NCBI GenBank assembly: GCA_964012805.1
Contig: CAXGUD010000003.1
Span: 1 to 64,000, forward strand
Direction: 5' to 3'
DNA from: an uncultured Bacteriovoracaceae bacterium
GTDB lineage: Bacteria > Bdellovibrionota > Bacteriovoracia > Bacteriovoracales > Bacteriovoracaceae
DNA: 64,000 bases
Part shown: piece by piece, positions 8,696 to 27,645 of the stretch
How the letters are laid out: the number at the start of each line of letters is the position of its first letter
Position numbering within the stretch: the stretch's first letter is position 1
Position numbers and translations under genes: made by a program
The notes under the pieces: generated by a model
The model's database searches: none
What the model was told of the DNA's origin: nothing
What the model saw: the letters and a program-made list of their open reading frames with translations, nothing else

Positions 8696-9830
8696 TTTTG
8701 AAAAAACGATTTTAGTTATTTCAGATATTCACCTGGGTGCGGGTGAAATGGTCAACGGAAAAAGAAACCTATTAGAGGACTTTCACTATGATAAGGAATT
8801 TATTGAGTTTCTGGATTATTACTCTACAGGACCATATGAAAAGAGAGAGGTAGAATTAATAATTAATGGAGATTTTTTAGATTTTTTAGCAGTCCCATTT
8901 GTGAATTATTTTGATGATGAATTTTGGAGTGAAGAAGCTGCCTTAGAAAAGTTAAAAATTATTTTGGATGCTCATAAAAATGTTATGGACTCTTTGAGCA
9001 AATTTATTTCAAAAGGTGATAAAAAATTAATCTATATTGTTGGAAATCATGATGGTGAATTCCTTTTTGAATCGATGAGGGATTACTTCATTAAACTTTT
9101 TCCTAAGACAGTCAGGAATAATATTTTATTTAGATTTGAAAAAGATGGTGAATATAGTCCTCATCCTGGGATCGTGATTAAGCATGGCCATGAATATGAA
9201 ATTCCTAACCAAATAGACCCTGAGGGATCAATTATAATCACCGAGGAAGGAAGGAAATATTTTCTTCCTCCATGGGGCTCTTACTATGTAACTAGAGTTA
9301 TAAATAAATTTAAAGAGGAAAGAGCTTATATTAACTTGGTTAGGCCAATAAAAAAGTTACTTATCAGTGGAATTATTTATGATACGTTGTTTACATTAAG
9401 ATTCATGTTGGCCAATATTTACTACATTTTTATGGTTCGTTTCATTCTTTACTTCAAATACAGTAAAAGTTTAAAAGAGATAATTGAAAATATGAAAAGA
9501 GAACTTAAAGTTTTCCAGGTCTCAGAAACAATTGTTGAGGATTTTTTTGAGGAAAGGAAGGATGTTGGTGTTCTTATAATGGGTCATACTCACTACCCAT
9601 CGATAACAACTTATTTTGATGGAGCCACTTTCATTAATACGGGTACTTGGGTAAAAATGAACTATTTAGACTTCGATAAACAGTCCCAAAATAATGACCT
9701 AACTTATGCAAAAATTAATATTAAAAGTATTAAAAAGAGTGGAAAGGTTAGAAGTAGAAACCTAAAGAATTTAGATATTCATTTTAATGTTTGGAAAGGG
9801 AAGAGTGAGAATCCTTTTAGAGGATTCTAG
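8673..9830 (+). CDS. Calcineurin-like metallophosphoesterase
   Basis: SDIH, GDFLD, GNHD, HGH, GHTH motifs; ATG at 8673. Confidence 0.85.
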   Translation: MISHTKSSFEKTILVISDIHLGAGEMVNGKRNLLEDFHYDKEFIEFLDYYSTGPYEKREVELIINGDFLDFLAVPFVNYFDDEFWSEEAALEKLKIILDAHKNVMDSLSKFISKGDKKLIYIVGNHDGEFLFESMRDYFIKLFPKTVRNNILFRFEKDGEYSPHPGIVIKHGHEYEIPNQIDPEGSIIITEEGRKYFLPPWGSYYVTRVINKFKEERAYINLVRPIKKLLISGIIYDTLFTLRFMLANIYYIFMVRFILYFKYSKSLKEIIENMKRELKVFQVSETIVEDFFEERKDVGVLIMGHTHYPSITTYFDGATFINTGTWVKMNYLDFDKQSQNNDLTYAKINIKSIKKSGKVRSRNLKNLDIHFNVWKGKSENPFRGF

Positions 9831-10333
9831 AACTCTGCATAACAAAGCTCCATGAACATTTTTCCATGAGCAGAGTTTATTGGTATCTCAACCACGGTCG
9901 TTCCAACTGGATACTTTATAGTGTGTTTAGGTCCCTCAATAATTGAAGGGATTGCCATGTTTGATGAGTATCCCATAACAGCGAGGTCTCTTTTGGCATT
10001 CCCCATGATCATGTTACAGATTTCTCCACCAACATCGGCTATGTCGTCATTGTACTCCTCATATGTTTCCATGAGCATAGCACTGGCTACTTTAAAGTAA
10101 GTTTCATAGGGCCAGGAGAGAACTAGCATCGCTCTATATTCGATGGTATCCCCTCCCTTAGTAAGTTCGCCACTAAGACCCAGGACTGATGAAACATCAC
10201 CATTTGAAACTTGACTCTTTTTTAACCCTGGTTTTTGAGGTTCCAGTTTGGTAAAGACCATGGTCTCAAAAACGTTTTTTGCCGCGTTAATAAAGGGTCT
10301 TGAAAACTCGATGAAATTTGTTGCACTGGCCAT
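9827..10333 (-). CDS. cheX: CheX-family phosphatase
   Basis: PFINAAKNVFETM, GEICNMIMGNAK (ExxN catalytic motif), MAIPSIIEG. Confidence 0.88.
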   Translation of the reverse strand: MASATNFIEFSRPFINAAKNVFETMVFTKLEPQKPGLKKSQVSNGDVSSVLGLSGELTKGGDTIEYRAMLVLSWPYETYFKVASAMLMETYEEYNDDIADVGGEICNMIMGNAKRDLAVMGYSSNMAIPSIIEGPKHTIKYPVGTTVVEIPINSAHGKMFMELCYAEF

Positions 10334-10350
10334 TTATGCCCCAACTTTTT

Positions 10351-10869
10351 TTATAATCCTAAACTTGCCATTAAATCGTCAATCGATGATTGCGACATTT
10401 TCTTATTATTTTCGTACTTAACATCTGACTCTACGGAAGCTCTGTCGATATTCTGAAATTTATTTGAGAGCCATTTTAGCCTAGTCGCGAAGGCTTTAGT
10501 ACTTAAACCGTTTAAAGTTTTCGAATTACCTGACTGAAGTGATGTCACCATTCCTCTTAGTAAGTCTACTGCATCAAATAAAATGGCCACAACAACGTTT
10601 AGTAAGGGTAGATCCGTTGTTTGACTTGATTTATATCCTATCACTTTTCCAAGTTCACAGAATCTAGAAATTTCTTCCGCACCTATCGTTTGAGCCGATC
10701 CCATTACTCGATCGATAATTTGACCAAACTTCTCCAGTTCTTTCGCTCCAGATTCGTCTTCTTCAAGTTCTTCTTCAAGATCTTCAAGTATTTCTTCAAG
10801 TTCGTCAAATAGACCCGCAGCTTCCTTACAAAAGTCTTCTATTATCTCTGGGTCATCAATTAATTCCAT
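10351..10869 (-). CDS. Hpt-fold protein lacking the phospho-His, with a CheZ-like C-terminal peptide
   Basis: IIEDFCKEA..LFDELE start; DRVMGSA in place of HTLKGSA; ends SQSSIDDLMASLGL. Confidence 0.7.
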   Translation of the reverse strand: MELIDDPEIIEDFCKEAAGLFDELEEILEDLEEELEEDESGAKELEKFGQIIDRVMGSAQTIGAEEISRFCELGKVIGYKSSQTTDLPLLNVVVAILFDAVDLLRGMVTSLQSGNSKTLNGLSTKAFATRLKWLSNKFQNIDRASVESDVKYENNKKMSQSSIDDLMASLGL

Positions 10870-10891
10870 AGGGTCTTACCTTAAACAAAAC

Positions 10892-11290
10892 TCATGAATT
10901 AAAAATCTTATCAATCTTCTCTTTTAAAACCTGTGCAGAGAAAGGCTTTACAATAAAGTTACTTACCCCGGCTTTAACAGCAATAACAACATTTCCTTGT
11001 TCTGCTTCGGCAGTAATCATTAGGAAAGGTGTTTTTTTAAATTCGTCAGTTGCTCTCATTTTTTTCAATAGGTCTAGCCCGCTCATTTTGGGCATATTCC
11101 AGTCCGACAAAATAAATTCGTATGGAACTCCTTCCTTATTTGCTTTTTCAATAAGAGGCCATGCTGTGGAGCCGTCATCAGCTTGAGTTATATTAGTGAA
11201 GCCGATCTGTCCGAGCATATTTTTGATGATTTTTCTCATGGTCGCCATGTCATCAACGACGAGAATTTTCATATCTGCTTTTAGGCCCAT
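10892..11290 (-). CDS. cheY: CheY response regulator
   Basis: ILVVDDMATMRKII, SDWNMPKMSG, MITAEA, IVKPF; single domain. Confidence 0.92.
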   Translation of the reverse strand: MGLKADMKILVVDDMATMRKIIKNMLGQIGFTNITQADDGSTAWPLIEKANKEGVPYEFILSDWNMPKMSGLDLLKKMRATDEFKKTPFLMITAEAEQGNVVIAVKAGVSNFIVKPFSAQVLKEKIDKIFNS

Positions 11291-11324
11291 TTCAAAACTC
11301 CCTAGATAGCCAAAATGTTAAAAG

Positions 11325-12335
11325 CTAGTAAGAATTTTTTAAGAGTTGATTTATTGTATCGCCAAATTCAAATTCAAGTCCAGGTGTAAAATTTTTATCT
11401 TGTATTTTTTTTATTACTAAATCCAATGGGTATTCTTTTTCATCAATTTTTCCTGTCGAAAAATCAAATATATGAGATGTTAAACCTAATATTAATGAAA
11501 GTGGATCAATTGAGTGTCCTAGTTTACTATTAGGGTAACCACTACCATCATACCTTTCGTGATGATCAAGAATAATATTTAGCGCTCTTTTACTTATTTC
11601 CAGTCCACTTTTTTTAATCAAATGTTGTGCTAGCCCCATATGTTTTTTAAATAGATGCTTTTCATCCTGACCAAGCTTTAAATAAGGTTTATGGTTAATA
11701 CTCTTATTTATTTGCGTAATGCCAATATTATGAAGAAATGAGGCACAAATAATTTCAGAGAGTGTTTGCTCATCTTCAAAATTGAGTAGTTTAGACAAGA
11801 AATAGGAAAAAGATACGATTCTGTTTGTAGTATTATCTTCACCTAAGAGCATCTTACAAAAGTAAACAGCTAAGCTGACAGTGTGGCTTTTTTTTGGGCT
11901 GAAACAAAGCACTTCCTTTCTGACTTGCTCAATAACTTCTGAAAAATCATCTTTTGAGATACATAACTTAATTTTACTAGGGAAATCAAATGATGATGAA
12001 TCCTCCATGGCCAATTTATATTTTTCTTGTTCTATTTCCATGGGATGTGGAGGAGGCTTTTTTAAGCTTGGAACCTCATCTTTCATTAATTGTTGAGCCC
12101 TGAGAAAAGTTCTTTGTTGTTTTACTAAAACAGCTAATTTCCCACCCCTATCAAGAATAAAATTTAAGAAAGATTTTTTTTCATCTGAAAGGGGACTATT
12201 AGCAAATAGAAAAGTGTTAAATTTTTTATTTTGAGGATTGAAAATATATAAGTGAAAAGAGAATAAAGTCTTTTCTTTTAGATGCTCTTCTTCAATAATA
12301 AAAAAGTCACTTTTTGTTTTCATATTTTTAACCAA
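11325..12335 (-). CDS. Degenerate HD-GYP domain protein
   Basis: HHERYDGSGYP present; LHNIG replaces LHDIG; true start may be ATG at 12323. Confidence 0.8.
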   Translation of the reverse strand: MVKNMKTKSDFFIIEEEHLKEKTLFSFHLYIFNPQNKKFNTFLFANSPLSDEKKSFLNFILDRGGKLAVLVKQQRTFLRAQQLMKDEVPSLKKPPPHPMEIEQEKYKLAMEDSSSFDFPSKIKLCISKDDFSEVIEQVRKEVLCFSPKKSHTVSLAVYFCKMLLGEDNTTNRIVSFSYFLSKLLNFEDEQTLSEIICASFLHNIGITQINKSINHKPYLKLGQDEKHLFKKHMGLAQHLIKKSGLEISKRALNIILDHHERYDGSGYPNSKLGHSIDPLSLILGLTSHIFDFSTGKIDEKEYPLDLVIKKIQDKNFTPGLEFEFGDTINQLLKNSY

Positions 12336-15015
12336 ATAAGCTTTTGAAGAAACCTTTAACTTTTTCTATAACTTTTTGGATTGCTCCGGAATTTTCTATC
12401 CTCGTTTTATCTAAAAAATCTTCATTGCTTGAAAAATCTAAAAATACACCTCTAGCTGATTCCATAAAAACTTCAATTTTTTTTGAGTTTGTTTCATCAA
12501 CACCATTATTAAAAATGCCAATGGTAAAACCTAGTCTATTTGGACCATCAAAATATGGATAATAAAAAATATTTTCTTGATTTAGAAACTTAGGATCTTT
12601 CCATGTTGGTAATTGTGTCTCTTTCCAAGTTTTTATATTTTCTCTTTTTATTTCCAGCCACAACTCATTTCTTACTGGGTCTGGGTTTTCTTTTTCGACA
12701 AAAGAGTTAAATATTTCAAAGAAATTACTTTTTCTATTATCGTATATGAAAAAGATGAGGTGAGCCTGAATTTCTGAATCAGTTACTTTTGAAATGTAAT
12801 CTAATATTTGATCTTCATCGACCTCTGGATCTTCATAAAGTTTCAATAAATTAATTATATACTCTAAGCCTTTTGAGTCTGCTGGAATTACAGGTTTATC
12901 ATTATCTTCATCTTCATCTTTAGTTATGCTTTTATCTTGGTCATTATTATCTTCATCATCTTTTTTTTCTTCATATTTACTATCTGTAAACTCTTTATGA
13001 ATTTTTCCATAATCAATTGTTTGTTCACCAGAGTCTCTTCTATTTAGAGAAATAGTTTGATTCTCTTCTTTTTTATTTGTAGAAAAATTGTCGTAACTAT
13101 TATCTTTTTTGGTGATTAGACCTTCCCAATCCGCTTCAACTTCTTTTTTCTCTTTCTTTTTCTTTTCTTTAAAATTAAAAGATGAGGCATTGTTATAATA
13201 TTCATCTTTTGCTTCATCTACCTCTATTTCTACTTTGCTCTCTGAAAGCTTTTCACCTGATTCTACATTGACATCAACACTTTTATTATCTAGTGAATGC
13301 TCAGAATCCAAATCTATATCATTATTTAATTCATCCTTCTTACTTCCCTCATCAACTAATCCCTCAAGTTCATTTGATGTCTCAAGTTTATTGTCCTCAT
13401 CTTCAATGTTTAAATCCGAATCGAGATTATTTTCTTTGTCGTCTAATTTTAATGAATCATCCTGAGAATCTATTTTTTCATAAGACCCCTGCTCATCCTC
13501 ACTATTATTAGCTTGATTCATCGTTTCGTCTGAATCAGTACTTATATCTAAGTTATCTTTATCTTCTCCATCTATACTATTAGAATCTATTTCTAAATTA
13601 TCATCCTCATTCGATGATTGTTGAGAGCTACCTTCTGCTATATTTAGACCTTCAGAGTCAGAAAGCTTCGAAACATTATCATCTTCATCTAAGCCTTTAA
13701 GGGAATGAGAATCTTGTTCGTCAATATTTAATTCTTTATTTTGATTTTCATCAAATTGACTGGAGGAATCTTCTATATTGAGGTTATCCTCCTCTGATGA
13801 AAGAAGAGAGTTTTCATTGCTAGACTCAAAGTCATCATCTTTTTGATTCGTTAAATTTGAGTCGACTAAATCTAAACCACTTTGGAGGCTACTTTCTAAA
13901 GGATCATCTGATTCTTCAATATCCAAATCTTTTTCTGATTTTAAACTTTCATTTTCAAGTTCGTCACTTTTTAGAGGGTCATCTGATTCATCTAAGTCAG
14001 CTTCATCTATAAAGTTATCCAGTTCTTTATCAAGTGAACTTATATCTTGGTTATCATCAAGGCTAAAACCAGTACTTTCTGAGCCGATACTATTATTACC
14101 TTCATCAATATTTAGATCCATATCTTTAGAGCTATCTTTTTTTTGGCTTGACTCTTCAATATTAAGACCTTGAGAAGATTCCAATAATTTGGTGTTATCA
14201 CTATCATCAATAAGGTTGTTTCCTTGTGTATCAGGCAATCCTTTGTCATCTATATCTAAATCAAATAGTGAATCTGGGCTTTTATCACTTGACCCTGATT
14301 CAATATCTAAGTCAAAGTTATTCCTCGAAGAATCACTGTTTCCTTGCTCTATTTCTAAGTCTGTTTTTCTTTTAGGTTCTTCATTTTCATTTTCGACATC
14401 TAGGAGAAGATTTCCTTCATTTGAAGATTTACTATTATCACTAGAACTTGGAGCTATTTGAAGTTCTGTTTGTTGAGTAGCTTTGGAAGAGTCCGGCTCA
14501 TCATTTTCATCCATTAAAAAAAGAGATTTTACTTGGGTACTTTCTGATTCATCTTTTTCTTCTATGTCTTGAATAAGAGATTCAACCTTTTGAATACTTT
14601 TTTCTTCTTTTTCCTCTTCCATTTTCATAGCGGGGAGAGATTTAATCAAAAACTTTACTTTATAAACTAATGACTTTGGAACGACGGGCTCGCAAAGAAA
14701 TTCTGTTAAACCTATTTTTTGAAACTTCTGAATGGTATTTCTTGGAAGATCCTTAGGAGATAAAAGAAGAACCTTTGATTTAAGCTTTTTAATTGCTTTC
14801 CTGTTTATTTGAAGGAGAGTAGAACAGAGTTTGGGATGGGAAATAAGTGTTATTGAAGCGCCAACAGTCTGGATTAATTGATTGGCTTCGTTTAGATCTT
14901 CACATTCATATATTTCTATTCCATCCTCATGGCTAGTCTCATTTATAACTTCCCTTAACTTTTGAAGGGAGGGAGATAAAGGGTTTACGAAAATTAAAGG
15001 TTTAGGCATATCCAT
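12328..15015 (-). CDS. Pseudo-receiver domain + long acidic low-complexity region + C-terminal globular domain
   Basis: REC-like N-terminus (VLLLSP..GLTEFLCEPV) without the Asp/Lys residues; long D/E/S/N-rich centre. Confidence 0.75.
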   Translation of the reverse strand: MDMPKPLIFVNPLSPSLQKLREVINETSHEDGIEIYECEDLNEANQLIQTVGASITLISHPKLCSTLLQINRKAIKKLKSKVLLLSPKDLPRNTIQKFQKIGLTEFLCEPVVPKSLVYKVKFLIKSLPAMKMEEEKEEKSIQKVESLIQDIEEKDESESTQVKSLFLMDENDEPDSSKATQQTELQIAPSSSDNSKSSNEGNLLLDVENENEEPKRKTDLEIEQGNSDSSRNNFDLDIESGSSDKSPDSLFDLDIDDKGLPDTQGNNLIDDSDNTKLLESSQGLNIEESSQKKDSSKDMDLNIDEGNNSIGSESTGFSLDDNQDISSLDKELDNFIDEADLDESDDPLKSDELENESLKSEKDLDIEESDDPLESSLQSGLDLVDSNLTNQKDDDFESSNENSLLSSEEDNLNIEDSSSQFDENQNKELNIDEQDSHSLKGLDEDDNVSKLSDSEGLNIAEGSSQQSSNEDDNLEIDSNSIDGEDKDNLDISTDSDETMNQANNSEDEQGSYEKIDSQDDSLKLDDKENNLDSDLNIEDEDNKLETSNELEGLVDEGSKKDELNNDIDLDSEHSLDNKSVDVNVESGEKLSESKVEIEVDEAKDEYYNNASSFNFKEKKKKEKKEVEADWEGLITKKDNSYDNFSTNKKEENQTISLNRRDSGEQTIDYGKIHKEFTDSKYEEKKDDEDNNDQDKSITKDEDEDNDKPVIPADSKGLEYIINLLKLYEDPEVDEDQILDYISKVTDSEIQAHLIFFIYDNRKSNFFEIFNSFVEKENPDPVRNELWLEIKRENIKTWKETQLPTWKDPKFLNQENIFYYPYFDGPNRLGFTIGIFNNGVDETNSKKIEVFMESARGVFLDFSSNEDFLDKTRIENSGAIQKVIEKVKGFFKSLFG

Positions 15016-15217: not shown

Positions 15218-15586
15218 ATGGCAAAAATACTGATAGTAGACGATTCCGAAACACTTAGATCTCAATTAAGAAAAGCTCTAGAAGAGGCTGGTCACGAGGT
15301 CGTTGAGGGGTATGATGGTGTGAATGGCTTAGAAACTCTTAACTCAAATCCAGACGTTCAACTTATCTTGTGCGATGTGAATATGCCGGAAATGGATGGG
15401 CTGACTATGTTAGGTAAGGTGGCTGAAAATGACAGCTTCAATAAGATTCCTATTTTTATGCTAACAACTGAGTCAAATGCAGATATGAAAGAGAAGGGAA
15501 AAGCAGTTGGTGTTAAAGCATGGGTAACCAAGCCATTTGTACCTGAAAAACTATTAGGAGCCGTTAAGAAGGTTCTTGGTAGTTAG
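15218..15586 (+). CDS. Single-domain CheY-like response regulator
   Basis: ILIVDDS, CDVNMPEMDG, MLTTES, WVTKPF. Confidence 0.93.
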   Translation: MAKILIVDDSETLRSQLRKALEEAGHEVVEGYDGVNGLETLNSNPDVQLILCDVNMPEMDGLTMLGKVAENDSFNKIPIFMLTTESNADMKEKGKAVGVKAWVTKPFVPEKLLGAVKKVLGS

Positions 15587-15618
15587 CAAAAGGGTAAACT
15601 TAAATTAGAGGTTCCACG

Positions 15619-18600
15619 ATGTCAAACATGGTTAAAAAATCGTCGGTTGCAACTAAGATGATATTTACAATTATTATTGTAACTCTTTTTGTTGCAGCAA
15701 TAGCCTCAGCCATAATTCTTAGTCAAGACTATGAAAAATATCTAAAAAGAGTAGAGCAGACGATGGAAGAAGCTAAGGAAAGCTTTATGAAACCATTGTC
15801 TGTTGCCCTTTACTCTGAAGATGAAGACCAGGTTAATAATGCCCTAAACGGTATATTAAAATTAGAAGGGTTAGTAGAGGTAAGAATTGTAAACGTTGGG
15901 GAGAAAGATCCTTCATTCTCAGCGGTCACTAGCAAGAAAGGTGGGAAATACAAAAAAATGAAGGCAGCGGAAAGGCGGTCCTTAGGCCCATCTAGAGAAA
16001 TAAAAATTATTCACGTAGACCCAGACGACCCTGATTCAAAGGGTGAGCAGATTGCTACAATGTTTCTGAACTCTACTAAGGAAGTCGCCAGAGATAAAAT
16101 TATAAACCAAATTCAAAAATTTGGGATTGTTCAATTATCACAAGTTGTTGTTTTGGCAATAGCGATTTTTCTCATATTTAGAAGTCTAGTAGCTAGACAT
16201 CTAAGGTCCATGGCCCAATTTGCTCAGGCGATGGATCTTAATGACTTGTCAGGTCCAGGTTTGACATTGGCCCGGAAAAGACCGGATTCAAATGATGAAC
16301 TTCAAGATCTAACGGACTCATTCAACGAAATGAGGGATAATCTAAAAAAGGCGCATGCAGAGTTAAAAGATTATGCCGAAAATTTAGAAGATAAAGTTAA
16401 GGCGGCAACAAAGGAAATAGAAGAAGAAAAGCAAAAAGTTGCAAACCTTCTTAATAATATGAAGCAAGCTATTTTTTCAATAAACTCAGAAGGAATAATT
16501 GTTGGTCCTGTGTCTGCTTTTTCTAAGGTTGTGTTTGATGGAGATGTCGAAGGCAATAATGTTTATGATACTCTTTACAAAGATATGGATACTCATGGTG
16601 AGGAATATGCGACTTTAAAAACATCAATGTTGTCTGTTTTTGGTGAGGATGATCTCCAGTATGATCTTATGGAAGATAATTTTCCGAATAGGATTGAATT
16701 TAAAGCAGGAAAAGAATCTAATAAAAAAGAAGATAACTCAGATCCAGAGATGGTGGTTGAAGAAGAAGAGGATGTCAGAATACTTTCTGTTAATTACAAC
16801 CCTATGTGGGATTCAAGCGACTGTTTAGAGCAATTAATGATTGTTGTCGAAGATATTACTGAGAAAGAAAAGTTAGAGGCAGAAGTTGCTAAACAGAAAA
16901 AAGAAAGTGAAAAAAATATATCTATAATAACTGAAATGGCAAATGCAGACCTTGAAGATATTTCAACTTTTCTAAAAAGTTCTCCTGAACTTGTTCAAAG
17001 TACTATGGATTTATCAAGAGTCGCTCATGAAAATACAGCGGTCCTTGGAGAAATGTTTAGGCATTTACATACTTTGAAGGGGAATGCCAGGGCCTTTAAT
17101 TTTAATTCGATTTCTAGTTTGACCCACGTTGCTGAAACAATCGTCACCACAATAAGAGAAAAAAAATCTAGCGGGGAGAATGTAACTAAAGAATTATTTA
17201 CACCTTTGATTTCCAAGCTTTACGATATTAACTCTGAGATTAATGATTATGGAGCATTGGCCAAGAAAGTTTTTAGAATTGAAAATGAGTTCGAAAACAA
17301 GCTAATTAGTGATATTCAAAGCTTCACAATAACTCTCGATCATTTGATATCGAAAAATATAACTTCAAAAGAGGCAGACTTTGATTTAAATCAACCTAAA
17401 GAAAAGCGAGAAAATGCATTTAATAGCTTCAAGGAAAATGATGGTATTTCGAAGGAAAACCTAAATCGTATTAAACGCTCGGCTCATTCGATAAAAGGTG
17501 CTTTGAGATCAATGAATGCACCTGAAATATCAGAAATGGTTCATAGGTTAGAAAGTGAAATTATTAAGTTTGATGACTTTAATCAATTTGACTTGGACAC
17601 TTTTACAAAAGACTTTATTTCGCCTTATGCAGATATTAAGGATAGGATAAAGTCTATTTACTCAAACTCTGATTTAAACAATCCATATACAAATGAATCA
17701 GCGGATTGGATAAATATATTTTTAGGAATCTTCCAATTATCTTCTGATTTGAATACTTTGGGAGCAGATGAAATTTTCCAAATAGAAGAAAAAGTCGAAA
17801 AAATACTCACAGAAACAAAGAGTCTAAAATTAGCATTTTTAACTAAAATGTCATCAGAGCTTTTTGGTTTAATTAAAATGGGAGCTGAAAAGCTAAGTGA
17901 TAATAAAAAGCCTATTAATTCAATTCTAAGGGAAATGTGGATTTATATATCTTTAGTTTCTAGGGCAAATTTGTCAAGAATAGAGGGCAGTTCAGAAAAA
18001 GAGAAGCTTATTAAAGTGGTAAGGAATCTACAGGATGATATAGATCTTGCTAGAGAGTCCCTAGATAATGCGAATGTAAGAGGTTCTATTCTACTTTCAA
18101 CATTGAGGCATATAGGAAGGATAGGTATAAATCCAAAAGATTTCTTTAAGGAAGCTAAAACTTGTTTAGGTAAAGACTCAGTTGAAGATTACTTCCTTTT
18201 TAAAGAAGATGCAGTAACTGACTTAAAATTTATTACGGCTGATTTAAAAACAACAAATATGGTGGATCTTCCAAAAGGAACAATTGAGTTAGCTGAAAAG
18301 GGAGACCCTTTGGCAGAAATGCTAAAAATATCTTTAGACGAAGATCCTCATTACAGATACCTAAAAATTATGGACTTCTCCCAATTATTGAGAGGTTTTA
18401 ATGAGGTCGTTGAGGATCAAGAGGAAGATACTGGTAAAAAAGTAAATACATTTCCTGTTGTTGCAAGAAATTATAATAGGTTGAAAGAAATTATAAGAAA
18501 TCATTCAAATGAAGAGATTTCCCAGGCTTTTAATCGGTTACTTGACGTTCCAATAATTCCATCATTAGCGAAGTATAAAACTATGGTTAACGACATTTCA

Positions 18601-19235: not shown

Positions 19236-20072
19236 ATGAAAAAATTTTTGATTTTGTTTTCACTTCTCGCATTCGTATCTAATACCTATGCACTAACAGA
19301 CCTTAAATGGTGGACTGAAGAGTATGGTCCATACAACTACCGTGATAAGTCTACTAAGAAAATTGAGGGTATCTCAATTGAATTATTAGAAGCTACTCAC
19401 AAAGAACTCGGCGTAAGTTTAACAAGAAAAAATTACAAGTTAGCTCCATGGGCAAGAGGTTACAAAGCTGCTCAAAAATCAGGAAAAATGAATGTAATTT
19501 TCTCTACTACAAGAAGTTTAGCTAGAGAGCCTATCTTTAAGTGGTTTGGTCCTGTGGCTCCTGCAACGCAATCTCTGTTTGCAATTAAAGGCACTGCTAA
19601 GCCTTCGAGTAATTCACAAATCAAAGGCTTTAAAATTGCCGTTATTAGAGATGATATCGCTCAGTTAACTCTTGAAGGTAAAGATTATGGAGTTCCTTCA
19701 TCGAAACTAGTTAAGCTAGCTAAAATCAAGCCAATGTTCAAAAACGTCGCTAAAGGTAAAACAAAGTATTTTGCTTATAATGAAAACGTAGCAAAATTCA
19801 GCTTTAAAAACCTTTATGGTGGTGAGTTCGCTGGTAAATTTGAAGTTGTTTACAAGCTAGCTGAGAATGATGAGCTATGGTATGCAGTTAACAAAAGTGT
19901 TGATGATGCAACTGTTCAAGCTTATCAGGATGCTCTAGATAAAGTTAAAGCTAAGGCTTCAGTAAGAAAAGTTTTGAAAGCTAAGCATGACTTTGTTCCT
20001 GCTACAAAAGCTGAAAGTCTTTTCGCTAGCTGTGGTTTAACTGGTTCAGACCAAGCTTGTAAGAAAAAATAA
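19236..20072 (+). CDS. Periplasmic substrate-binding protein (family 3, amino-acid type)
   Basis: Signal peptide; TEEYGPYNY, GISIEL, PWARG, FSTTRS..RE..FKWFGP. Confidence 0.85.
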   Translation: MKKFLILFSLLAFVSNTYALTDLKWWTEEYGPYNYRDKSTKKIEGISIELLEATHKELGVSLTRKNYKLAPWARGYKAAQKSGKMNVIFSTTRSLAREPIFKWFGPVAPATQSLFAIKGTAKPSSNSQIKGFKIAVIRDDIAQLTLEGKDYGVPSSKLVKLAKIKPMFKNVAKGKTKYFAYNENVAKFSFKNLYGGEFAGKFEVVYKLAENDELWYAVNKSVDDATVQAYQDALDKVKAKASVRKVLKAKHDFVPATKAESLFASCGLTGSDQACKKK

Positions 20073-20088
20073 TTTAAATTTGATGAAT

Positions 20089-20120
20089 AGGGCTTCACCC
20101 CTCATGGGTGAAGCCTTCTT
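20089..20120 (+). terminator. Hairpin terminator after the SBP gene
   Basis: GGCTTCACCC-CTCAT-GGGTGAAGCC then TTCTT. Confidence 0.8.
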
Positions 20121-20222
20121 AAATAGAAGAGAAACTTTTTCCCAACTTAAATAAGTTTAAAATCAGCATAAAATATAATCATATTGTTTTATTTTTGGCT
20201 TCTTATGTCATGTGAGGAATAA

Positions 20223-20798
20223 ATGTCAGAAGAAATTATGGAAAGTTCTCTTGCCAAATTGAAAGAGCTTGTGCGCCAAGTTTCAATTACTAGGTTTAAG
20301 CAGTCTGCTCAAAATGATGAATACAACCTCTTAGAGGTTCCAAAAAGCTCTGAAAAGACCGTTTTTGATCATTGGATGTCCCTAATATTAATATCGGGTA
20401 AGAGTCTCAGAATAACCTTCAAGACTCATTTCAATATAAAAACTTGTCGTAAGATAGCTTCTCCCATTTACGGAAAAAAGCCCGACGATATTGCTGTAAG
20501 GCAGGCTCAGGATTTCGTTAAGGAATATGGTAACTTATCAGCAGGCTTTTTGAAAAAAATATTTGAAGAACAAGATGTAGATGTTGGGATTAGTCTTCCT
20601 CTTGTCATTAGAGGATTTGATGAAGTCTTTTTCGATAAAAGCGAAGATGAGTCTAAGTTAGAGGATTGTTGGAGACTTGACAACGGATCAACAAGCCTTG
20701 TTTGTACGTCTCTTCTTGAGGTTTACCAACCTGAAGTTATACAGGAATTGGATTTTACTATTGAAGAGGAAGAAGAAGAGGAGATAGATTTCTTATGA
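20223..20798 (+). CDS. CheX-like protein, copy 1
   Basis: DFVKEYGNLSAG (ExxN), GISLP; tail EEEEEEEIDFL. Confidence 0.75.
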   Translation: MSEEIMESSLAKLKELVRQVSITRFKQSAQNDEYNLLEVPKSSEKTVFDHWMSLILISGKSLRITFKTHFNIKTCRKIASPIYGKKPDDIAVRQAQDFVKEYGNLSAGFLKKIFEEQDVDVGISLPLVIRGFDEVFFDKSEDESKLEDCWRLDNGSTSLVCTSLLEVYQPEVIQELDFTIEEEEEEEIDFL

Positions 20799-23386
20799 GC
20801 AATATCAATCAGGACCTCCAGGCCACACATAAGATTTTAACAATTATTGAGCAATCAAAATCTAATAATGATGAACTTTTAGATCATCTTCCGGGAATTT
20901 TCTGCATCATAGATGAAGAAGCTAAAATCCTTCGAGGTAACCTAGAGTTATCTAATATTTTCAATATAGATCTAGAAGATTTAATTGAAAAAGACTTTAG
21001 TACAATTTTTTCTAAAGAGATCTGGAAGATTTTTAAAGGGAAAATAGATGCTCTTGATGGAAAAAGTGATGAACTTCAGTTTGAACTAGAAATCCATAAA
21101 GAAGGAGACGATGAAAGTAAATCCTTTTATTGGTATATTTCAAACTTTTCAAGTGGCAAGGAAAATAAGAAGAAATTTTATAGTATTGTTGGTGAAGATA
21201 TTTCCGAGCTAAGGAAAAAAGAAAAGCAGTTAATGGAAATTTTCTCTAGTATACCTCTAGGAATTTTAACTATAGGACCTAATAAAAAAATAGAACCACA
21301 ATATTCACAATTCACTGAGTACCTCCTAGATAATAAAGAGTTACAAGGAAAAGATTTAGAAAGTACTATTTTTAAAGAGACATTGGAAGATTGTGAGCCT
21401 GAGGTAAGGGAAGGAGTTAATAATATTATTGGCTCAATTGGAGAAAATGATCTAATTTTCGAATCATTGAAATCAACATTTCCTTCTAAAATTTGGTATC
21501 CAATAAAAGATAATTTAGATGGTGGAAGATGGATCGGTTTAACTTATCAACCCGTTGTATACAGTGGAGTAGTTAAAAGAATACTTGTCATTTGCGAAGA
21601 TAGAACTAAGATCATTCAAAGCGAAGAAGCCTTAAAAGATTCCCAAATGCTTGAAGACAAAAGTATAGCTAGAATTCTTCAAATCAAAAAGTCGGATCAG
21701 AGTATGCTCCCTCTTTTCATGAAGGAAATTGAGGAATTAGTTTCTCGATTATCGGCCCTTCATAAAGAGGAAGATTCTAAAGAGATTTGTAATGTACTCC
21801 ATGGTGTAAAGGGTAATGCTAGGGTTGCTGGATTTGATTTTTTGACTTCGTTAAGTCATGAGCTTGAAACCTATGTATTAGATAAAAATAAATCTGAAAA
21901 TGAATCAAAGTGGAAAGATATTGGTGATAGGGTTCATGACATAAAAGAGGAATGGAAAGAAATTAACTCTCTGTATAGATCACTTTCTCCATCAGATGGT
22001 GACCAAGCTGATAATGAAAAGGTAGACTCCGATGTTGCTGAGCTATTTGAGCGGTATAGCAAGATGCTTAATGAATCTAGCTTTTCAGAAGATCCCATTA
22101 AAACAGAAAGAATGATGCTTGCAATAAAGAGTATAAATTTCTCATCTATAGATGATTTGAATGAGACTATCTTACATAAGGCTGAAAAAACCGCAGAAAA
22201 ACTAAGTAAAAAAGTTGAAGTAAAGTTTGATTGGAACTCTATAATTCTCGAAGATTATACTAAGTCTTCTCTTAGCGAATCTCTTTTACATCTTGTGACC
22301 AATGCTATCAGTCATGGGGTGGAGGCTCCTGATAAAAGAACTCAGTTAGGCAAAAAAGAAGTTGGCCAAATTAACATCAAGGCCAGAGAAAAAGACGGTA
22401 TGATCTTTCTTGATGTTCACGATGATGGGGCAGGTATTTCTTTTAGTTCGATAGTTCGTACTGCAGTTAAACGTAAGATTATCACTTTAGAAAAAGTTAC
22501 CCAAATAAGTAGGTCAGAATTATTGAAATTAGTTTTTGAGCCAGGCTTTTCTACAGCTCAAGAGCTAACCGAAATATCTGGTCGTGGTGTTGGAATGGAT
22601 GTTGTTGCGGAAAGAGTGAAAGAACTTGGTGGTGACATAACTCTTGATACCAAAGAGGGAAAAGGTACTCGGTTTAGCATGAGTATGAGGACTGGAAAAA
22701 AGACTGAAGTTAATCGGAATGTTGTTTCCCTATCCAGGTTCAAAAATTTACTTGAAAAGAATATCCAATCTCTTGGAAAAGAGAAAAGTGTCGAATTAGA
22801 TTTCGAAAAAAGTGGAGATGCAACTTTGTCAAAAGGGATGATCTTTTGTGATATGCCTAGATTGACACTTGCAGTGACAACATATTTGGGATCATATTTA
22901 AAAGAAGGGGGATCTTACAAGCTCCATTCTTTCAGGGAAGGTAATCAATTTAACATCCATGTTCAATGTATAAAAGAAGGTGATGATCAAAGTAAATGGG
23001 CAGAGTTTTCAAAACCACTCTCTTTTTGCCTTGATTATTTAAAAAAACACGGTGGAAATGTTAGTATTACGAGTGAAAAAATGGAGATATCTTTTGGCCA
23101 TATTTTAGGTAAAACAGATATTCCTGATCTTCATGTGGCTTTTGAAAAAGGAATTTCTGAAGACGATGCTAAAATTACGGTTGAAAGAATTTTGAGTATT
23201 AAAGATGAACTAGATCTGTCGCTTGAAATAGATCTAAAACCTGATAGATATACTAATCTTCTTGTAGTTTCAAATCCTTCAGAATCTAAAGACTTATCCT
23301 TAACTCTTGGAGCATCCAAAGCAAGTCTTCAAAAGGAGTTAAGGAAAAAAGTTGAGTCAATCGTTTCGGCAATTGATAGGTTCTAA
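20795..23386 (+). CDS. Cytoplasmic CheA-like kinase: PAS-PAS-like-Hpt-HATPase plus C-terminal extension, copy 1
   Basis: LHGVKGNARV, HLVTNAISHG, DDGAG, FEPGFST, SGRGVGMDVV; ATGA overlap with the upstream gene. Confidence 0.88.
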   Translation: MSNINQDLQATHKILTIIEQSKSNNDELLDHLPGIFCIIDEEAKILRGNLELSNIFNIDLEDLIEKDFSTIFSKEIWKIFKGKIDALDGKSDELQFELEIHKEGDDESKSFYWYISNFSSGKENKKKFYSIVGEDISELRKKEKQLMEIFSSIPLGILTIGPNKKIEPQYSQFTEYLLDNKELQGKDLESTIFKETLEDCEPEVREGVNNIIGSIGENDLIFESLKSTFPSKIWYPIKDNLDGGRWIGLTYQPVVYSGVVKRILVICEDRTKIIQSEEALKDSQMLEDKSIARILQIKKSDQSMLPLFMKEIEELVSRLSALHKEEDSKEICNVLHGVKGNARVAGFDFLTSLSHELETYVLDKNKSENESKWKDIGDRVHDIKEEWKEINSLYRSLSPSDGDQADNEKVDSDVAELFERYSKMLNESSFSEDPIKTERMMLAIKSINFSSIDDLNETILHKAEKTAEKLSKKVEVKFDWNSIILEDYTKSSLSESLLHLVTNAISHGVEAPDKRTQLGKKEVGQINIKAREKDGMIFLDVHDDGAGISFSSIVRTAVKRKIITLEKVTQISRSELLKLVFEPGFSTAQELTEISGRGVGMDVVAERVKELGGDITLDTKEGKGTRFSMSMRTGKKTEVNRNVVSLSRFKNLLEKNIQSLGKEKSVELDFEKSGDATLSKGMIFCDMPRLTLAVTTYLGSYLKEGGSYKLHSFREGNQFNIHVQCIKEGDDQSKWAEFSKPLSFCLDYLKKHGGNVSITSEKMEISFGHILGKTDIPDLHVAFEKGISEDDAKITVERILSIKDELDLSLEIDLKPDRYTNLLVVSNPSESKDLSLTLGASKASLQKELRKKVESIVSAIDRF

Positions 23387-23407
23387 AAAAAATAAAAATC
23401 TTATTTT

Positions 23408-23440
23408 AAAAAAAGCCTCCAATTTGGAGGCTTTTTTTTT
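23408..23440 (+). terminator. Rho-independent (bidirectional-type) terminator
   Basis: A-run, GCCTCCA-ATT-TGGAGGC, T9. Confidence 0.9.
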
Positions 23441-23522
23441 GCCTAACAAATTCAAATAAAGCCATGGCCAAGAAGTAAAAAACAATTCTATTATTAGTTA
23501 GCTCTATAAAGTTTAACCAAGG

Positions 23523-24110
23523 ATGGACGTTTTTATGACTGAAGCTCAAATAGATCCTGAGTGTTTAAAAAGAATGAGGGACTTAGTCAGAAATGTTTCT
23601 ATAGATCGGTTCAAAAGAGCTGCTCAGAATGAAAATTATATTCTTTTAGAAACATCTCAATTAAAAAGAGACGTTTATGATCACTGGATGGCTTTAATAC
23701 TAGTTTCTGGTAAAGCCCTTAGAATAACTTTAAAAGTACACTTTAATATAAAATCTTCCAGAAAAATGGCATCACCGATTTATGGGATTAATCCAGAGAA
23801 ACTAGAAATTCGACAAGCTAAAGATTTCATAAAAGAATTCTGTAATTTATCTGCGGGATATATAAAAAAGATATTTGAAGACCAATCAATAGATGTAGGG
23901 ATAAGTTTACCTCTAGTGATTAGAGGTTTTGATGAAGTTTTTTTTGAAAGACAAGATAAAGAATCTATTATTGAGGATAAATTTAGAATAGAAAGTGGTG
24001 GCGTTGGAGTTCTTTGCACTAATATAGTTGAGGTTTTTAATCAGAGTCTTTTAAACGATGTAGACATTAATATTGAGGAAGAAGAAGAAGAGGAGATCGA
24101 TTTCTTATGA
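23523..24110 (+). CDS. CheX-like protein, copy 2
   Basis: DFIKEFCNLSAG, GISLPLVIRGFDEVFF; tail EEEEEEEIDFL. Confidence 0.75.
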   Translation: MDVFMTEAQIDPECLKRMRDLVRNVSIDRFKRAAQNENYILLETSQLKRDVYDHWMALILVSGKALRITLKVHFNIKSSRKMASPIYGINPEKLEIRQAKDFIKEFCNLSAGYIKKIFEDQSIDVGISLPLVIRGFDEVFFERQDKESIIEDKFRIESGGVGVLCTNIVEVFNQSLLNDVDINIEEEEEEEIDFL

Positions 24111-26704
24111 GCGAAATTAATAAGGACCTTCAGGCTACTCACAAAATATTAACTATTGTAGAGCAATCAAAGTCTCATAATGATGAGCTTTTGGACAAAC
24201 TCCCCGGTGTTTTCGCCATTGTCGATGAAAAGGCAAAAATTCTCAGAGGGAATTTGTTTCTTTCTGGAATTTTTGATTGCGAATTAGAAGAAATCATTGA
24301 AAAAGATCTTTCTTCTATTTTTAGTCAAGAAGCTTGGAATATATTCCAGAAAAAAATTATAGATGTAAAAGATAGTGACGGAAAAGATGAACAATTTGAA
24401 CTAGAGCTTGAAAGTAAGAAGGATGATGAGAGCAAATCCTTTTACTGGTATATTTCAAAATTTTCTCCGAGTAAAAAAAATGATAGAGATTTTTACTCTA
24501 TAGTCGGTGAAGATATTTCAGAGCTTAGAAAAAAAGAAAAACAGCTCATGGAAATATTTTCAAGTATTCCGCTAGGAATTTTGACGGTCAGTTCTGATAA
24601 AACTATTGATCCCCAATATTCTCAATTTACGGAATATCTGCTCGATAGAAAAGATTTGGAAGGAAAGAATTTTGAAGAAGTTCTTTTCAGCTATACGTCT
24701 GCAAATGGAACACCTGAAGAGAAGGAAGGTGTTAACAATATAAAAGCATCGATAGGTGAAAATGAGCTTATCTTCGAATCTTTGAAATCTACTTTTCCAA
24801 CTCAAGTCTGGTATCCAATTGATAATAATTTGGATGGGGGGAGATGGTTAGGGATAAGTTATCAACCAGTTGTTTATAGCGGATCTGTAAAAAGATTACT
24901 CATTATTTGCGAGGATAGAACAAAAATTATCCAAAGTGAGGAAGCATTAAAAGACACACAGATGTTGGAAGATCAGAGTATTGCAAGAATTCTTCAAATT
25001 AAGAAATCAGACCAAAATATGCTTCCCCTATTTGTGAAGGAAATTAACGCTCTAATGGAAAAACTTGAACCTCATATTGAAGCAAAAGAGTCTAGAGAGC
25101 TCTGTAACTCCCTCCATGGAATAAAAGGTAATGCAAGAGTTGCAGGTTTTGATTTTCTTACCAATCTTTCCCATGAGCTTGAAACTTTTGTCTTGGATAA
25201 AAATAAACCAGAAAATGACGGCAAATGGACTGAAATTGGGGAAAGCATACAGGGTATTAAAAATGAGTGGAGTGAAATAGAGTCTCTCTATAATTCTTTA
25301 ATGAAAGTTAATAAGGAAGAGGGAAAGAACTCTAATTTAGATGATGATGTTTCAGACTTATTTGAAAGGTATAGCAGAATTTTAAATGCAGGAAAATTAG
25401 GTGATGATCCACTTAAAGCTGAAAGAATGATGTTAGCAATAAAGTCTATTAACTTCTCCAATCTAGACGATCTCAAAGATAAGTTATCCGTTCAGGTGGA
25501 TAAAACAGCAGAAAAATTAGGGAAAGAAGTTAATTTTAATTTTCAATTCGATGAGGTGACTGTTGAAGAATATGCCAAATCGTCTTTAAGCGAGTCCTTA
25601 CTTCATATTCTTAACAACTGTGTTGGTCATGGCATTGAAATGCCTGACGATAGAGAGATGATGGGTAAAGAAAGGGCGGGCCAAATTGATATTGTTATTC
25701 GGGAAGGAAAATCTGGATTTCTTGATATAAAAGTATCAGATGATGGTGCTGGAATATCTTTTTCTTCCATTGTAAAAAATGCTGTGAAGAAAAAAATAAT
25801 CGACCTCGATAAAGTTCCTGACATTAGCAAAGAAGAGTTACTTAACCTTGTGTTCGAGCCAGGTTTTTCTACCGCAGAAAATGTAACTGACGTCAGTGGA
25901 AGAGGCGTAGGAATGGATGTTGTAGCGGAAAGAATGAAAGAACTTGAAGGTTCGATAGCTCTAGATTCTATTGAGGGAAAAGGCACAACTTTTGTTCTTA
26001 AGATGAAAAGTGGAAAAAAATCTGAAATAAATAGAACTGTTTTCCCGTTGAAAAAATTTAAAGAGATCATAGTAAAAAATATTATCCAAACTGGGAAAGA
26101 AAAGAATGCCAACTTATCCTTTGATGAGGAAGGAATTGAAGAGCTTGATAAAGGAATTATCTATGGAGATATTTCCAGAATCATTTTAAGTTTGACGACA
26201 TATGTTGGAAGTTTTGTTAAAGGTGGAGGAGATTATAATTTTAAAGTTTCTAGAAACGGAACAAAAATTATTTGTCATGTCCATGCCAAAAAGCAAGGTA
26301 AGGATAAAAAGAAACTCGCTGAATTTAATCGTCCATTGAATTTCTGCCAGGAATATTTAAGGCAACATGGTGGGAATATAAATTTGGATGGAAATAAATT
26401 AGAGGTTTCCTTTGGTAACTTATTAACAAAAACTGAGATACCTGAAATAAATATCGCCTTTGAAAAAACAATAAGTGAAGTCGATGCTCAAAGCACCAAA
26501 GAAAAAATTGAGCAAGTGAAAGCTGAATTAGACCTTCCTATAAATATTTCTAATAAGCCAAACATACAAACAAACCTAATGGTTTTGACAACTCCTTCTA
26601 ACTCTGGGGATTTAAATCTTACTTTGGGTTCATCAAAAGCAAGCATCCAAAAAGATCTAAGAAGAAAAATAGAATCAATTTTCAGGGCCCTTGATAATTT
26701 CTGA
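24107..26704 (+). CDS. Cytoplasmic CheA-like kinase, copy 2
   Basis: LHGIKGNARV, HILNNCVGHGIE, DDGAG, SGRGVGMDVV; ATGA overlap. Confidence 0.88.
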   Translation: MSEINKDLQATHKILTIVEQSKSHNDELLDKLPGVFAIVDEKAKILRGNLFLSGIFDCELEEIIEKDLSSIFSQEAWNIFQKKIIDVKDSDGKDEQFELELESKKDDESKSFYWYISKFSPSKKNDRDFYSIVGEDISELRKKEKQLMEIFSSIPLGILTVSSDKTIDPQYSQFTEYLLDRKDLEGKNFEEVLFSYTSANGTPEEKEGVNNIKASIGENELIFESLKSTFPTQVWYPIDNNLDGGRWLGISYQPVVYSGSVKRLLIICEDRTKIIQSEEALKDTQMLEDQSIARILQIKKSDQNMLPLFVKEINALMEKLEPHIEAKESRELCNSLHGIKGNARVAGFDFLTNLSHELETFVLDKNKPENDGKWTEIGESIQGIKNEWSEIESLYNSLMKVNKEEGKNSNLDDDVSDLFERYSRILNAGKLGDDPLKAERMMLAIKSINFSNLDDLKDKLSVQVDKTAEKLGKEVNFNFQFDEVTVEEYAKSSLSESLLHILNNCVGHGIEMPDDREMMGKERAGQIDIVIREGKSGFLDIKVSDDGAGISFSSIVKNAVKKKIIDLDKVPDISKEELLNLVFEPGFSTAENVTDVSGRGVGMDVVAERMKELEGSIALDSIEGKGTTFVLKMKSGKKSEINRTVFPLKKFKEIIVKNIIQTGKEKNANLSFDEEGIEELDKGIIYGDISRIILSLTTYVGSFVKGGGDYNFKVSRNGTKIICHVHAKKQGKDKKKLAEFNRPLNFCQEYLRQHGGNINLDGNKLEVSFGNLLTKTEIPEINIAFEKTISEVDAQSTKEKIEQVKAELDLPINISNKPNIQTNLMVLTTPSNSGDLNLTLGSSKASIQKDLRRKIESIFRALDNF

Positions 26705-26716
26705 GGGACATTTTTG

Positions 26717-26756
26717 AAAAGGCATCTTTATTTGAAAGAATAGGGATGCTTTTTTT
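26717..26756 (+). terminator. Hairpin terminator between convergent genes
   Basis: AAAAGGCATCTTTA...TAGGGATGCTTTTTTT, imperfect stem with G-U pairs. Confidence 0.6.
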
Positions 26757-26757
26757 A

Positions 26758-27645
26758 TTATAGAAACTCTACGTCTGAACTAGGTGGAGTAAAAGGGACT
26801 TCTGTAAGGTCGAAAAGTTTCTTTCCTTCATGGTCAATATAACCGAGAGTTAGCGAAAAGATGTTTTTCTCTTCCCTTAGTACGATTTCTGGAAAGTATA
26901 TTTTACCAAAATTGACTCGTGAATTTCTATCGTAGGATTGGGGTATTGATATTTTGGCTTTTATATCTATTTTGGTAAAATTATAGTTTACTATACCAAT
27001 ATATTGATTCATGAATTCTCGGAAGTAGTCTTCTAGCTTACCTTCTGTTTCACCTTGAAGCGTTTCCGAGTTTGACCTTAAATTTTCCTCGTTAACCCTT
27101 AAAACGAATCGACCTGTTGTTGACTCAAAAGAGTTTTCACAAATGGTCATGTAATCGCATTCTTCAATTCCAGGTCCGCTATCTAAAGTCCAGACTGTTT
27201 GAATATCTTTGAATATAAATGGGAAAATATAATTGGCACAAGATACTGAAAATTTGTTGAGTCCTCCCGGCATCCTTGAACGATCTCTAACAGAAAAAGA
27301 AGCTTTCATAAAGTCTTCATTAAAGTCACCAAAGACAATCTTTTCATGATGCTTCTCAGGTATGTCTAGGTCTGTTGAGGGGTTGAAAAGGATGAAGTCC
27401 AGCTTAAGGGGACCAAGCGCATTAAAAAGAATATTTAGGGTGTCCTGATCAATTCCGTCAAGAAATAGATAAATGTCGATGAAGTACTTAACCCTATCAA
27501 TTGTATCTAAGAACTCATCGATATCGTATACTTCTGCAACTTTAAACTTTTTCTCTTTCGCCAGTTTTTTATTTATCTCTTTAACTTCCTGAGGCGTATT
27601 AAAGGATACAAGATAACTAGAGTTTGAGAAGATAAATTTTGGCAT
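26758..27645 (-). CDS. Putative receiver-like + CheX-like fusion
   Basis: DYFREFMNQYIG (ExxN), ISIP; ends SSDVEFL; alpha/beta N-terminal domain. Confidence 0.55.
   Translation of the reverse strand: MPKFIFSNSSYLVSFNTPQEVKEINKKLAKEKKFKVAEVYDIDEFLDTIDRVKYFIDIYLFLDGIDQDTLNILFNALGPLKLDFILFNPSTDLDIPEKHHEKIVFGDFNEDFMKASFSVRDRSRMPGGLNKFSVSCANYIFPFIFKDIQTVWTLDSGPGIEECDYMTICENSFESTTGRFVLRVNEENLRSNSETLQGETEGKLEDYFREFMNQYIGIVNYNFTKIDIKAKISIPQSYDRNSRVNFGKIYFPEIVLREEKNIFSLTLGYIDHEGKKLFDLTEVPFTPPSSDVEFL

Follow-up and report, generated by a model that had tools for sequence, protein, structure and literature searches.

What do CheA-type histidine kinases do at a locus that holds no chemoreceptor? This question was raised by the 64-kb window studied here (the whole stretch of DNA analysed, 64,000 nucleotides), which lies on contig C3 of the 4.47-Mb genome of an uncultured Bacteriovoracaceae bacterium (100% complete, 1.8% contaminated, 130 contigs) and whose DNA was also present in marine metagenomes. 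At positions 9827-27645, 13 ORFs form two divergent arms separated by a 202-base gap. The left arm (9827-15015) includes cheY, a His-less Hpt and cheX, and the right arm (15218-27645) holds three CheX-family genes, a receiver and three kinases of CheA type that lack CheW/P5. Pfam and NCBIfam searches of the 13 ORFs yielded three Hpt + HATPase_c kinases, for which the best kinase models were those of CheA, two receivers, an HD domain, a weak Hpt and three ORFs that match CheX. As an earlier note on this DNA had stated, no match to MCP, CheW, CheR or CheB occurred within the window. On balance, the results favour a reading in which the window carries three of about 70 sensor-fused, CheW-less class III histidine kinases that sense for themselves and signal from Hpt to receivers reset by the CheX family, part of them probably feeding a motor CheY instead of arrays.

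The three kinases K1 (15619..19104, + strand), K2 (20795..23386, +) and K3 (24107..26704, +) all scored above the Pfam cut-off for Hpt, the His-bearing Hpt/P1 criterion of CheA, with H-x-x-K-G boxes at H484 and H623 in K1, H336 in K2 and H337 in K3. Their N, D/G1, SGRGVGMD and G3 boxes were all intact, so that the three kinases with CheA-type Hpt and ATP lid described by the earlier note are present at these coordinates. K1, a membrane class III kinase with Pfam Hpt and HATPase_c matches, consists of two transmembrane segments, a CHASE5-like periplasmic domain, HAMP (CHASE5 and HAMP matches below the Pfam cut-offs), a PAS-like core, two His-bearing Hpt domains, a helical region and a CheA-type P4, and ends 38 residues past the start of the lid motif. 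K2, a soluble class III kinase, combines PAS, a PAS-like core, Hpt, a CheA-type P4 and a 229-residue tail beyond P4, and K3 is its paralogue (55% identity over P4 and tail). The PAS matches of K2 and K3 were weak and were counted as a sensor in the same chain, which is the class III criterion.

A Pfam CheW domain was found in none of the three kinases, and PF01584 (CheW) occurred in 0 of 61 K1-core homologues. K1 stops after P4, and the tail of K2 and K3, a type common to only 3 clusters in a set of 5.8 billion sequences, was the remaining place for a P5. In profile comparisons (hhalign), this tail aligned to the genome's classical HATPase with E 0.004 over 115 columns (at a probability of only 8%) and to CheW with E 0.65 over 11 columns. 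AlphaFold modelling of K2 residues 430-863 (13 rows, mean pLDDT 77) placed the strands and helices of the tail in the same order as in the first GHKL domain, with pLDDT mostly 70-90, followed by a small alpha/beta domain of low confidence. These last 90 residues gave no alignment to receivers (E 0.12). A P5 hidden in the tail was ruled out by the profile comparison together with the secondary structure of the model, and the tail would instead represent a degenerate, catalytically dead second ATPase/GHKL fold rather than the all-beta fold of CheW. The fold search with the K2 model was filled by the first GHKL domain and therefore speaks to P4, not to the tail: it aligned the K2 P4 with CheA P4 at Z 22.6-23.3 (rmsd 2.1-4.2, 178-198 aligned), while classical kinases reached at most 16.5. 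The absence of P5 proposed in the earlier note was thus upheld by two checks that it had suggested for the kinases, a Pfam scan and AlphaFold.

Class III histidine kinases, reportedly delineated by Adebali in 2017, are said to consist of a sensor, an Hpt and a CheA-type ATPase without CheW, with a single-domain receiver and CheX nearby and pilT in the genome. The window kinases share with them a sensor fused to Hpt and CheA-type ATPase, the lack of CheW or a detectable dimerisation domain, an adjacent single-domain receiver and CheX (REC2 beside K1; XL2 and XL3 overlapping K2 and K3) and pilT in the genome. Judged by sequence and by these class features, the right-arm kinases fit the class III design, and the label that they had previously been given is appropriate. 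They differ in occurring in 71 copies alongside zero MCP matches and retained flagellar motor genes and cheY, in the co-expansion of a divergent CheX subfamily, in the two His-bearing Hpt domains of many copies, in the predicted dead second ATPase domain of K2 and K3, and in that no soluble chemoreceptor was found. What they have in common with CheA (class II histidine kinase) is a P1-type Hpt carrying H-x-x-K-G and a P4 that resembles CheA more than it does classical kinases; they depart from it in having sensors and lacking CheW. According to the available text of Berry et al. (2023; PMC10542144), 100% of CheAs have a CheW domain and none has a sensor domain; since every CheA carries CheW, the window kinases are not CheAs. 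The module itself is therefore of a known kind, and its genome-wide expansion with receptor loss is the new part. An expansion to about 70 copies with receptor loss and motor retention, a dead-ATPase tail or a P1-CheZ-tail protein was not found in the literature searched, which did not cover subscription journals; high copy numbers may be listed in the tables of Adebali 2017.

With a P4 profile derived from the genome itself, 72 CheA-type kinase ORFs were detected above 140 bits, a count that omits two fragments and one degenerate copy scoring below that value. One of them ends in a CheW tail (on contig C58), two (K2 and K3) have the long 229-aa tail, and the other 69, including two that stop at contig ends and two short fragments, end at most 16 residues after P4, so that 71 of the 72 lack P5. 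A His-bearing Hpt was detected in 69 of 72 and a PAS-like core likewise in 69 of 72, and many of the kinases have two His-bearing Hpt domains. Their N-termini fell into three clusters with 7TMR-DISM in sampled members (16, 15 and 4 kinases), a HAMP/periplasmic cluster of 13 that includes K1, a REC-containing cluster of 4 and a PAS cluster of 3; 7TMR-DISM scored above cut-off in paralogues of K1-K3. A Pfam scan of 24 sampled proteins, of which 18 belong to the 72, found no CheW, P2 or dimerisation domain. For comparison, a regular-expression count gave a classical kinase motif in about 18 ORFs of the genome. Pairwise identity of the P4 domains had a median of 35% and a maximum of 74%, and the kinase ORFs were spread over 38 contigs and made up 4.6% of the genome. 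Assembly duplication as a cause of their number was ruled out by these identities and this spread, as well as by occurrence of the same block in related loci L002 and L003.

Parts of the same architecture recur in other proteins. About 15 full-length ORFs of the genome, plus fragments, have class III-type sensors and the PAS-like core but a conserved helical C-terminal domain of about 250 aa, and thus form a kinase-less sensor family (e.g., L062, C18:630-3104; L060, C27:24343-26550; L061, C6:24877-28698). This C-terminal domain had no Pfam match in the three proteins scanned and no match to Hpt or ATPase, and all atlas leads for it were below 0.9. In three fusions, a classical HisKA-HATPase-REC hybrid kinase precedes a class III core (e.g., L049, C32:4832-12403; L050, C4:109624-113682). 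Several K1-core homologues of about 2000 aa (P0176, P0178, P0179, P0181-P0184) combine the class III core with AAA and GAF domains and a Ser/Thr kinase.

Chemoreceptors were not detected in the whole genome with profile PF00015, which was positive in 8 of 14 controls and in 70 of 100 family genomes. In addition, tblastn searches of the genome with the MCPs of two relatives and one array CheW gave 0 matches at E 0.01. Together with the lack of P5 in 71 of 72 kinases, these results strengthen the case for the array independence that had been proposed from the window alone. CheW domains were confined to one pair of genes on C58 (L001:12277-15306), consisting of the sole P5-bearing CheA (REC-Hpt-P3-P4-P5) and a neighbouring CheW with a long N-terminal extension; the pair also occurs in G082. 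This CheA fell outside the common CheA group of the family in a quick tree with open deep forks, and was the only match in the genome to PF02895 (H-kinase_dim, P3), a model of low sensitivity according to the available text of PMC10542144. CheR matches were found in frames of 345-1089 aa, and CheB in one 867-aa frame that it shares with CheR. Without MCPs, the substrate for methylation is absent. The earlier suggestion of a non-adapting pathway therefore holds for methylation-based adaptation only, and other forms of adaptation may still operate. In contrast to the receptors, components of the motor were kept: FliM, including its N-terminal CheY-binding segment and with export genes recognised by eye beside fliM, MotB, and eight strong flagellin matches. 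PilT was also present (TIGR01420 above cut-off, contig C22).

The distribution of the expansion was surveyed in genomes of the family and phylum by counting the ATP-lid motif with a degenerate DNA pattern, which also counts ordinary CheA (reversed control 0-3). The three genomes of the genus gave 60 motifs (this genome), 59 (G082, 68% complete) and 36 (G025, 72% complete). The other 98 family genomes had 0-15, with 13-15 in three of them, which represent two genera, and a second, partly overlapping sample of 250 phylum genomes had 0-4. As in this genome, MCP matches in G025 were zero. The K1 core was strong in 9 of 100 family genomes and marginal in 4, and the divergent CheX family (XL2 type) occurred in 7 of 100, all of them among the 9 with a strong class III core. 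A single CheW-less CheA-type kinase was seen in another family of the phylum (L083, G205:C1:2315300-2316900).

Candidate partners of the kinases lie next to them in the right arm. REC2 (15218..15586, +; Pfam Response_reg E 8e-25), a single-domain receiver of the 'TTE...W..KP' class, ends 33 bases upstream of K1. The genome encodes 87 single-domain receivers, 36 of the REC2 type and 51 others; for 17 of the 36, versus 3 of the 51, a class III kinase is encoded no more than 1.6 kb away, and REC2 is thus likely to be cognate to class III kinases. Two divergent CheX-family genes, XL2 (20223..20798, +; Pfam CheX E 3e-6) and XL3 (23523..24110, +; E 1e-5, below cut-off), overlap the starts of K2 and K3, respectively, by 4 bases. 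A 295-aa protein with the CheX-type motif in its C-terminal part, XL4 (26758..27645, -), has a paralogue at C3:72677 and no Pfam match; ESM Atlas clusters named CheX were found for it at 0.92, with CheX on 16-18% of members. The fourth protein, CheX1 of the left arm (9827..10333, -; Pfam CheX E 1.4e-19), is the canonical one. According to the available text of PMC12887009, D/S-X3-E-X2-N-X21-P is the active-site consensus of CheC/CheX/FliY. The motif was complete in all four window proteins (at 97 in XL2, 101 in XL3, 206 in XL4 and 100 in CheX1, as D-x3-E-x2-N-x21-P in the latter), against 15 of 1551 ORFs of 150-320 aa genome-wide, and the four ExxN CheX-family proteins recognised before are hence genuine carriers of the consensus. 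By this likeness they would act as phosphatases, although XL2, XL3 and XL4 have diverged (their Pfam scores lie at or below the cut-off or are lacking) and belong to a family of about 17 copies.

It is fairly likely, given the overlaps, that XL2 and XL3 are co-translated with K2 and K3 and serve them. XL genes also overlap the start of a class III kinase by 4 bases in G037 and G027, and in three other inspected loci they have no adjoining kinase. Within the genome, a CheX-family gene stands beside K2, K3 and one soluble kinase on C39 only, with a fourth case at 778 bp. A dedicated phosphatase for each kinase, as the earlier note had envisaged, can therefore be maintained for these few but not for the rest of the 72. 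Elsewhere on the contig, three tandem divergent CheX-family genes have no kinase close by (L040:5635-7577, C3:97634-99576).

In the left arm, CheY1 (10892..11290, -; NCBIfam CheY E 3e-40, 137 bits, below the cut-off of 189) is a motor-type CheY with D13, D14, D63, T93 and K115, and is 62-98% identical across 22 relatives. It is 32% identical to REC2; both receivers that had been called CheYs are present, but they belong to different classes. Downstream of cheY1 lies a gene (10351..10869, -) for a His-less CheA-P1-like protein (pseudo-Hpt) with a flexible linker and a CheZ-like C-terminal helix, followed by cheX1. The pseudo-Hpt matched 61 of 100 family genomes; in its 25 best loci, cheY1 precedes it in 25 and cheX1 comes after it in 23. 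Strong orthologues (E < 1e-20) were present in 50 of 70 genomes with an MCP match and in 4 of 31 without one; these genomes are kin and not independent, and two of the four belong to this genus. In G026, the cheY/pseudo-Hpt/cheX block directly adjoins cheA-cheW-mcp-cheR. Because of its conserved order and its link to MCP-positive genomes, the cheY/pseudo-Hpt/cheX block is a family-wide motor-output block that was retained here and is older than the right arm. Its junction with the kinase block belongs to this genus (synteny in L002 and L003; same contig in G025).

The pseudo-Hpt profile matched the P1 domain of Thermotoga maritima CheA (E 2.8e-6) with His replaced by Asp. Asp53 takes the His position in the window protein, which has no His anywhere, as the earlier reading of a pseudo-Hpt implied, and Asp was found in 59 of 59 members. 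The phospho-accepting His of an Hpt phosphotransfer protein is thus lacking. E46, G49, D53, R54, D164 and L170 were invariant in the 59 members, and Q50 was present in 58. The structure model showed five helices, a disordered stretch at 144-160 and a helix at 163-169; in Foldseek it gave no match at E<=0.001, with CheA P1 in the top rows (E 0.006-0.03). Databases label such proteins 'CheA' or 'Hpt'. Pfam CheZ was the second commonest match of the family (16 of 59 members at E<=1), always below cut-off (best 17.3 vs 30.7 bits), and in 4 of 18 rescanned members the alignment ran to profile position 202 of 203.

The motif of CheZ is DxxxQ. Its Gln is catalytic, according to the available text of PMC5231405. 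The pseudo-Hpt shares with CheZ a helical core, a disordered linker, a gene directly after cheY, a conserved acidic-x3-Gln spacing and a predicted C-terminal amphipathic helix, putatively binding CheY-P, which in some members aligns with the last positions of Pfam CheZ. However, its core is a CheA P1 bundle in sequence and predicted fold, not the CheZ hairpin, and CheZ structures were not matched by its profile or by its last 23 residues. Membership of the CheZ family was rejected, as the Pfam cut-off was not reached and both sequence and model matched CheA P1. A complex of CheY1 with the pseudo-Hpt was weakly supported by prediction (0.46 vs 0.01 for the best control), without an interface: 116 of 157 solved pairs attained the mark, as did 2 of 215 mismatched ones, and values <=0.60 comprised only 18 of the 157 and both mismatches. 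The runs agreed in at least 93% of contacts with a partner pLDDT of at least 74; the support may reflect model memory, since similar P1-CheY complexes have already been solved. The pseudo-Hpt would thus appear to play a CheZ-like role on a P1 scaffold, and is a candidate for sequestering CheY-P or for dephosphorylating it as a new kind of phosphatase. That it docks CheY1-P via its CheZ-like tail, and then dephosphorylates or sequesters it, is considered plausible and is slightly favoured.

Among the remaining genes of the locus, one encodes a degenerate HD-GYP-like protein (11325..12335, -; Pfam HD_5 E 4e-16; PDB 4mcw E 3e-11), which keeps HHE and the GYP at 266 but has H202-N in place of the H-D dyad, with no HD dipeptide anywhere, and is likely weak or inactive as a catalyst by these residues. 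Two genes omitted from the earlier note complete the arms. One encodes an 895-aa acidic protein (12328..15015, -) with an atypical receiver-like N-terminus (weak phmmer matches of residues 1-135 to receivers of the genome), a 31% D/E linker and zero Pfam matches. The other encodes a family 3 solute-binding protein (19236..20072, +; Pfam E 5e-8), which is syntenic in the relatives' loci L002 and L003 and is a possible input of K1. Solute-binding proteins as general kinase inputs were rejected: of 20 paralogues, a single one has a class III kinase nearby, which does not exceed the background of 176 of 3185. A metallophosphoesterase gene (8658-9830, +) converges on cheX1 with a 4-base overlap and adjoins it in most related loci. 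Outside the cluster, the window contains two more single-domain receivers (37668-38039, +; 53347-53760, -) and a 452-aa ORF with a receiver-like start (53802-55160, -). Contigs from four marine metatranscriptomes match parts of the pseudo-Hpt/cheY and REC2-K1 regions and of the genes for the binding protein, K2 and K3; DNA carry-over is possible, so these matches are no proof of expression.

In the favoured mechanism, each kinase would be governed by its own input domain, would autophosphorylate the His of its Hpt and would pass the phosphate to single-domain receivers, which CheX-family proteins would reset; part of the class III pool would supply phosphate to the retained motor CheY1 in place of receptor arrays. 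By analogy with the biochemistry of CheA, autophosphorylation of class III kinases and transfer to REC2-type receivers are very probable. Their putative role as phosphate source for CheY1, and hence in steering swimming, is the weakest step and stands at slightly less than an even chance, the candidate donors being the class III pool or the single CheA on C58, for which no receptor is known. Several observations weigh against the mechanism. The P5-bearing C58 CheA could phosphorylate CheY1, six CheY1-like receivers exist in the genome, and gene neighbourhood ties the kinases to REC2-type receivers rather than to CheY1. With pilT present, the kinases may act on a pilus, an output that has been put forward for class III kinases. 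The three genus genomes are kin and not independent, two are only 68-72% complete, and G082 keeps one MCP gene in a cheA-cheY-cheR-cheB-cheW operon. G027, G037 and G089 keep 19-31 MCP matches even though the class III core matches number 5-11 and the lid motifs 13-15, and expansion therefore does not require receptor loss. Conversely, G004 and G032 keep the pseudo-Hpt without MCP and without kinase expansion, and the CheZ match, below cut-off, is missing in 43 of 59 pseudo-Hpt members.

Some of these points would also fit a less likely but serious alternative, in which the class III kinases constitute a many-to-many network of their own and use the 36 REC2-type receivers to control non-flagellar outputs (type IV pili, predation cycle, c-di-GMP). 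In that case CheY1 would be driven by the C58 CheA or idle, and the cell would swim without chemotaxis. The receiver linkage, pilT and the coexistence of class III kinases with many MCPs in the three relatives agree with it, as does the available text of PMC6501615, which, citing Adebali 2017, reports class III kinases in genomes that lack chemotaxis genes and have a pilus marker. Yet CheY1, the pseudo-Hpt, CheX1 and the CheY-binding segment of FliM are intact and conserved, 27 of 31 MCP-negative genomes lack a strong pseudo-Hpt orthologue, and in this genus the cheY and kinase blocks are linked. The earlier proposal of one self-contained signalling island, with a phosphatase for each kinase and signals to two local CheYs, is improbable. 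The XL2-K2 and XL3-K3 overlaps, the order kept in L002 and L003 and an XL distribution that tracks class III kinases speak for it, but 72 kinases face 18 CheX-like ORFs (iterated set) and the XL4 pair, adjacency covers only 3-4 kinases, and K1 has no CheX gene directly beside it. Moreover, the left arm is the older block and is shared across the family; it occurs in 50 of the 70 genomes with MCPs and, in one relative, next to array genes. Least probable by far is that the kinases still depend on arrays whose receptor genes were lost from the assembly or are too divergent. The 130 contigs and a P5-bearing CheA and CheW without a known receptor partner would allow this, against which stand 100% marker completeness, 0 matches by both profile and tblastn, 71 kinases that lack a P5 for docking and mostly have transmembrane sensors of their own, and the absence of PF01584 from the K1-core homologues.

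A wider scenario, in which the genus replaced its arrays by about 70 self-sensing CheA-type kinases that integrate their signals through receiver phosphorylation and steer an intact motor without methylation adaptation, with a phosphatase of P1 and CheZ-like tail ending the motor signal, is tentative and, taken as a whole, rather unlikely. K2, K3, their CheX partners and the receivers are soluble targets for a first biochemistry of class III kinases, on which no experimental paper was found in the literature searched (subscription journals outside its coverage). The pseudo-Hpt, conserved in the chemotactic members of the family, lends itself to direct tests as a candidate for a novel architecture of CheY-P phosphatases. 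CheW-coupled receptor arrays are, according to the available text of a preprint (10.1101/2022.05.07.491037), the key feature that divides chemotaxis from two-component systems. A lineage with a motor and CheY, in which no receptors were detected, thus offers a natural test of flagellar control without arrays.

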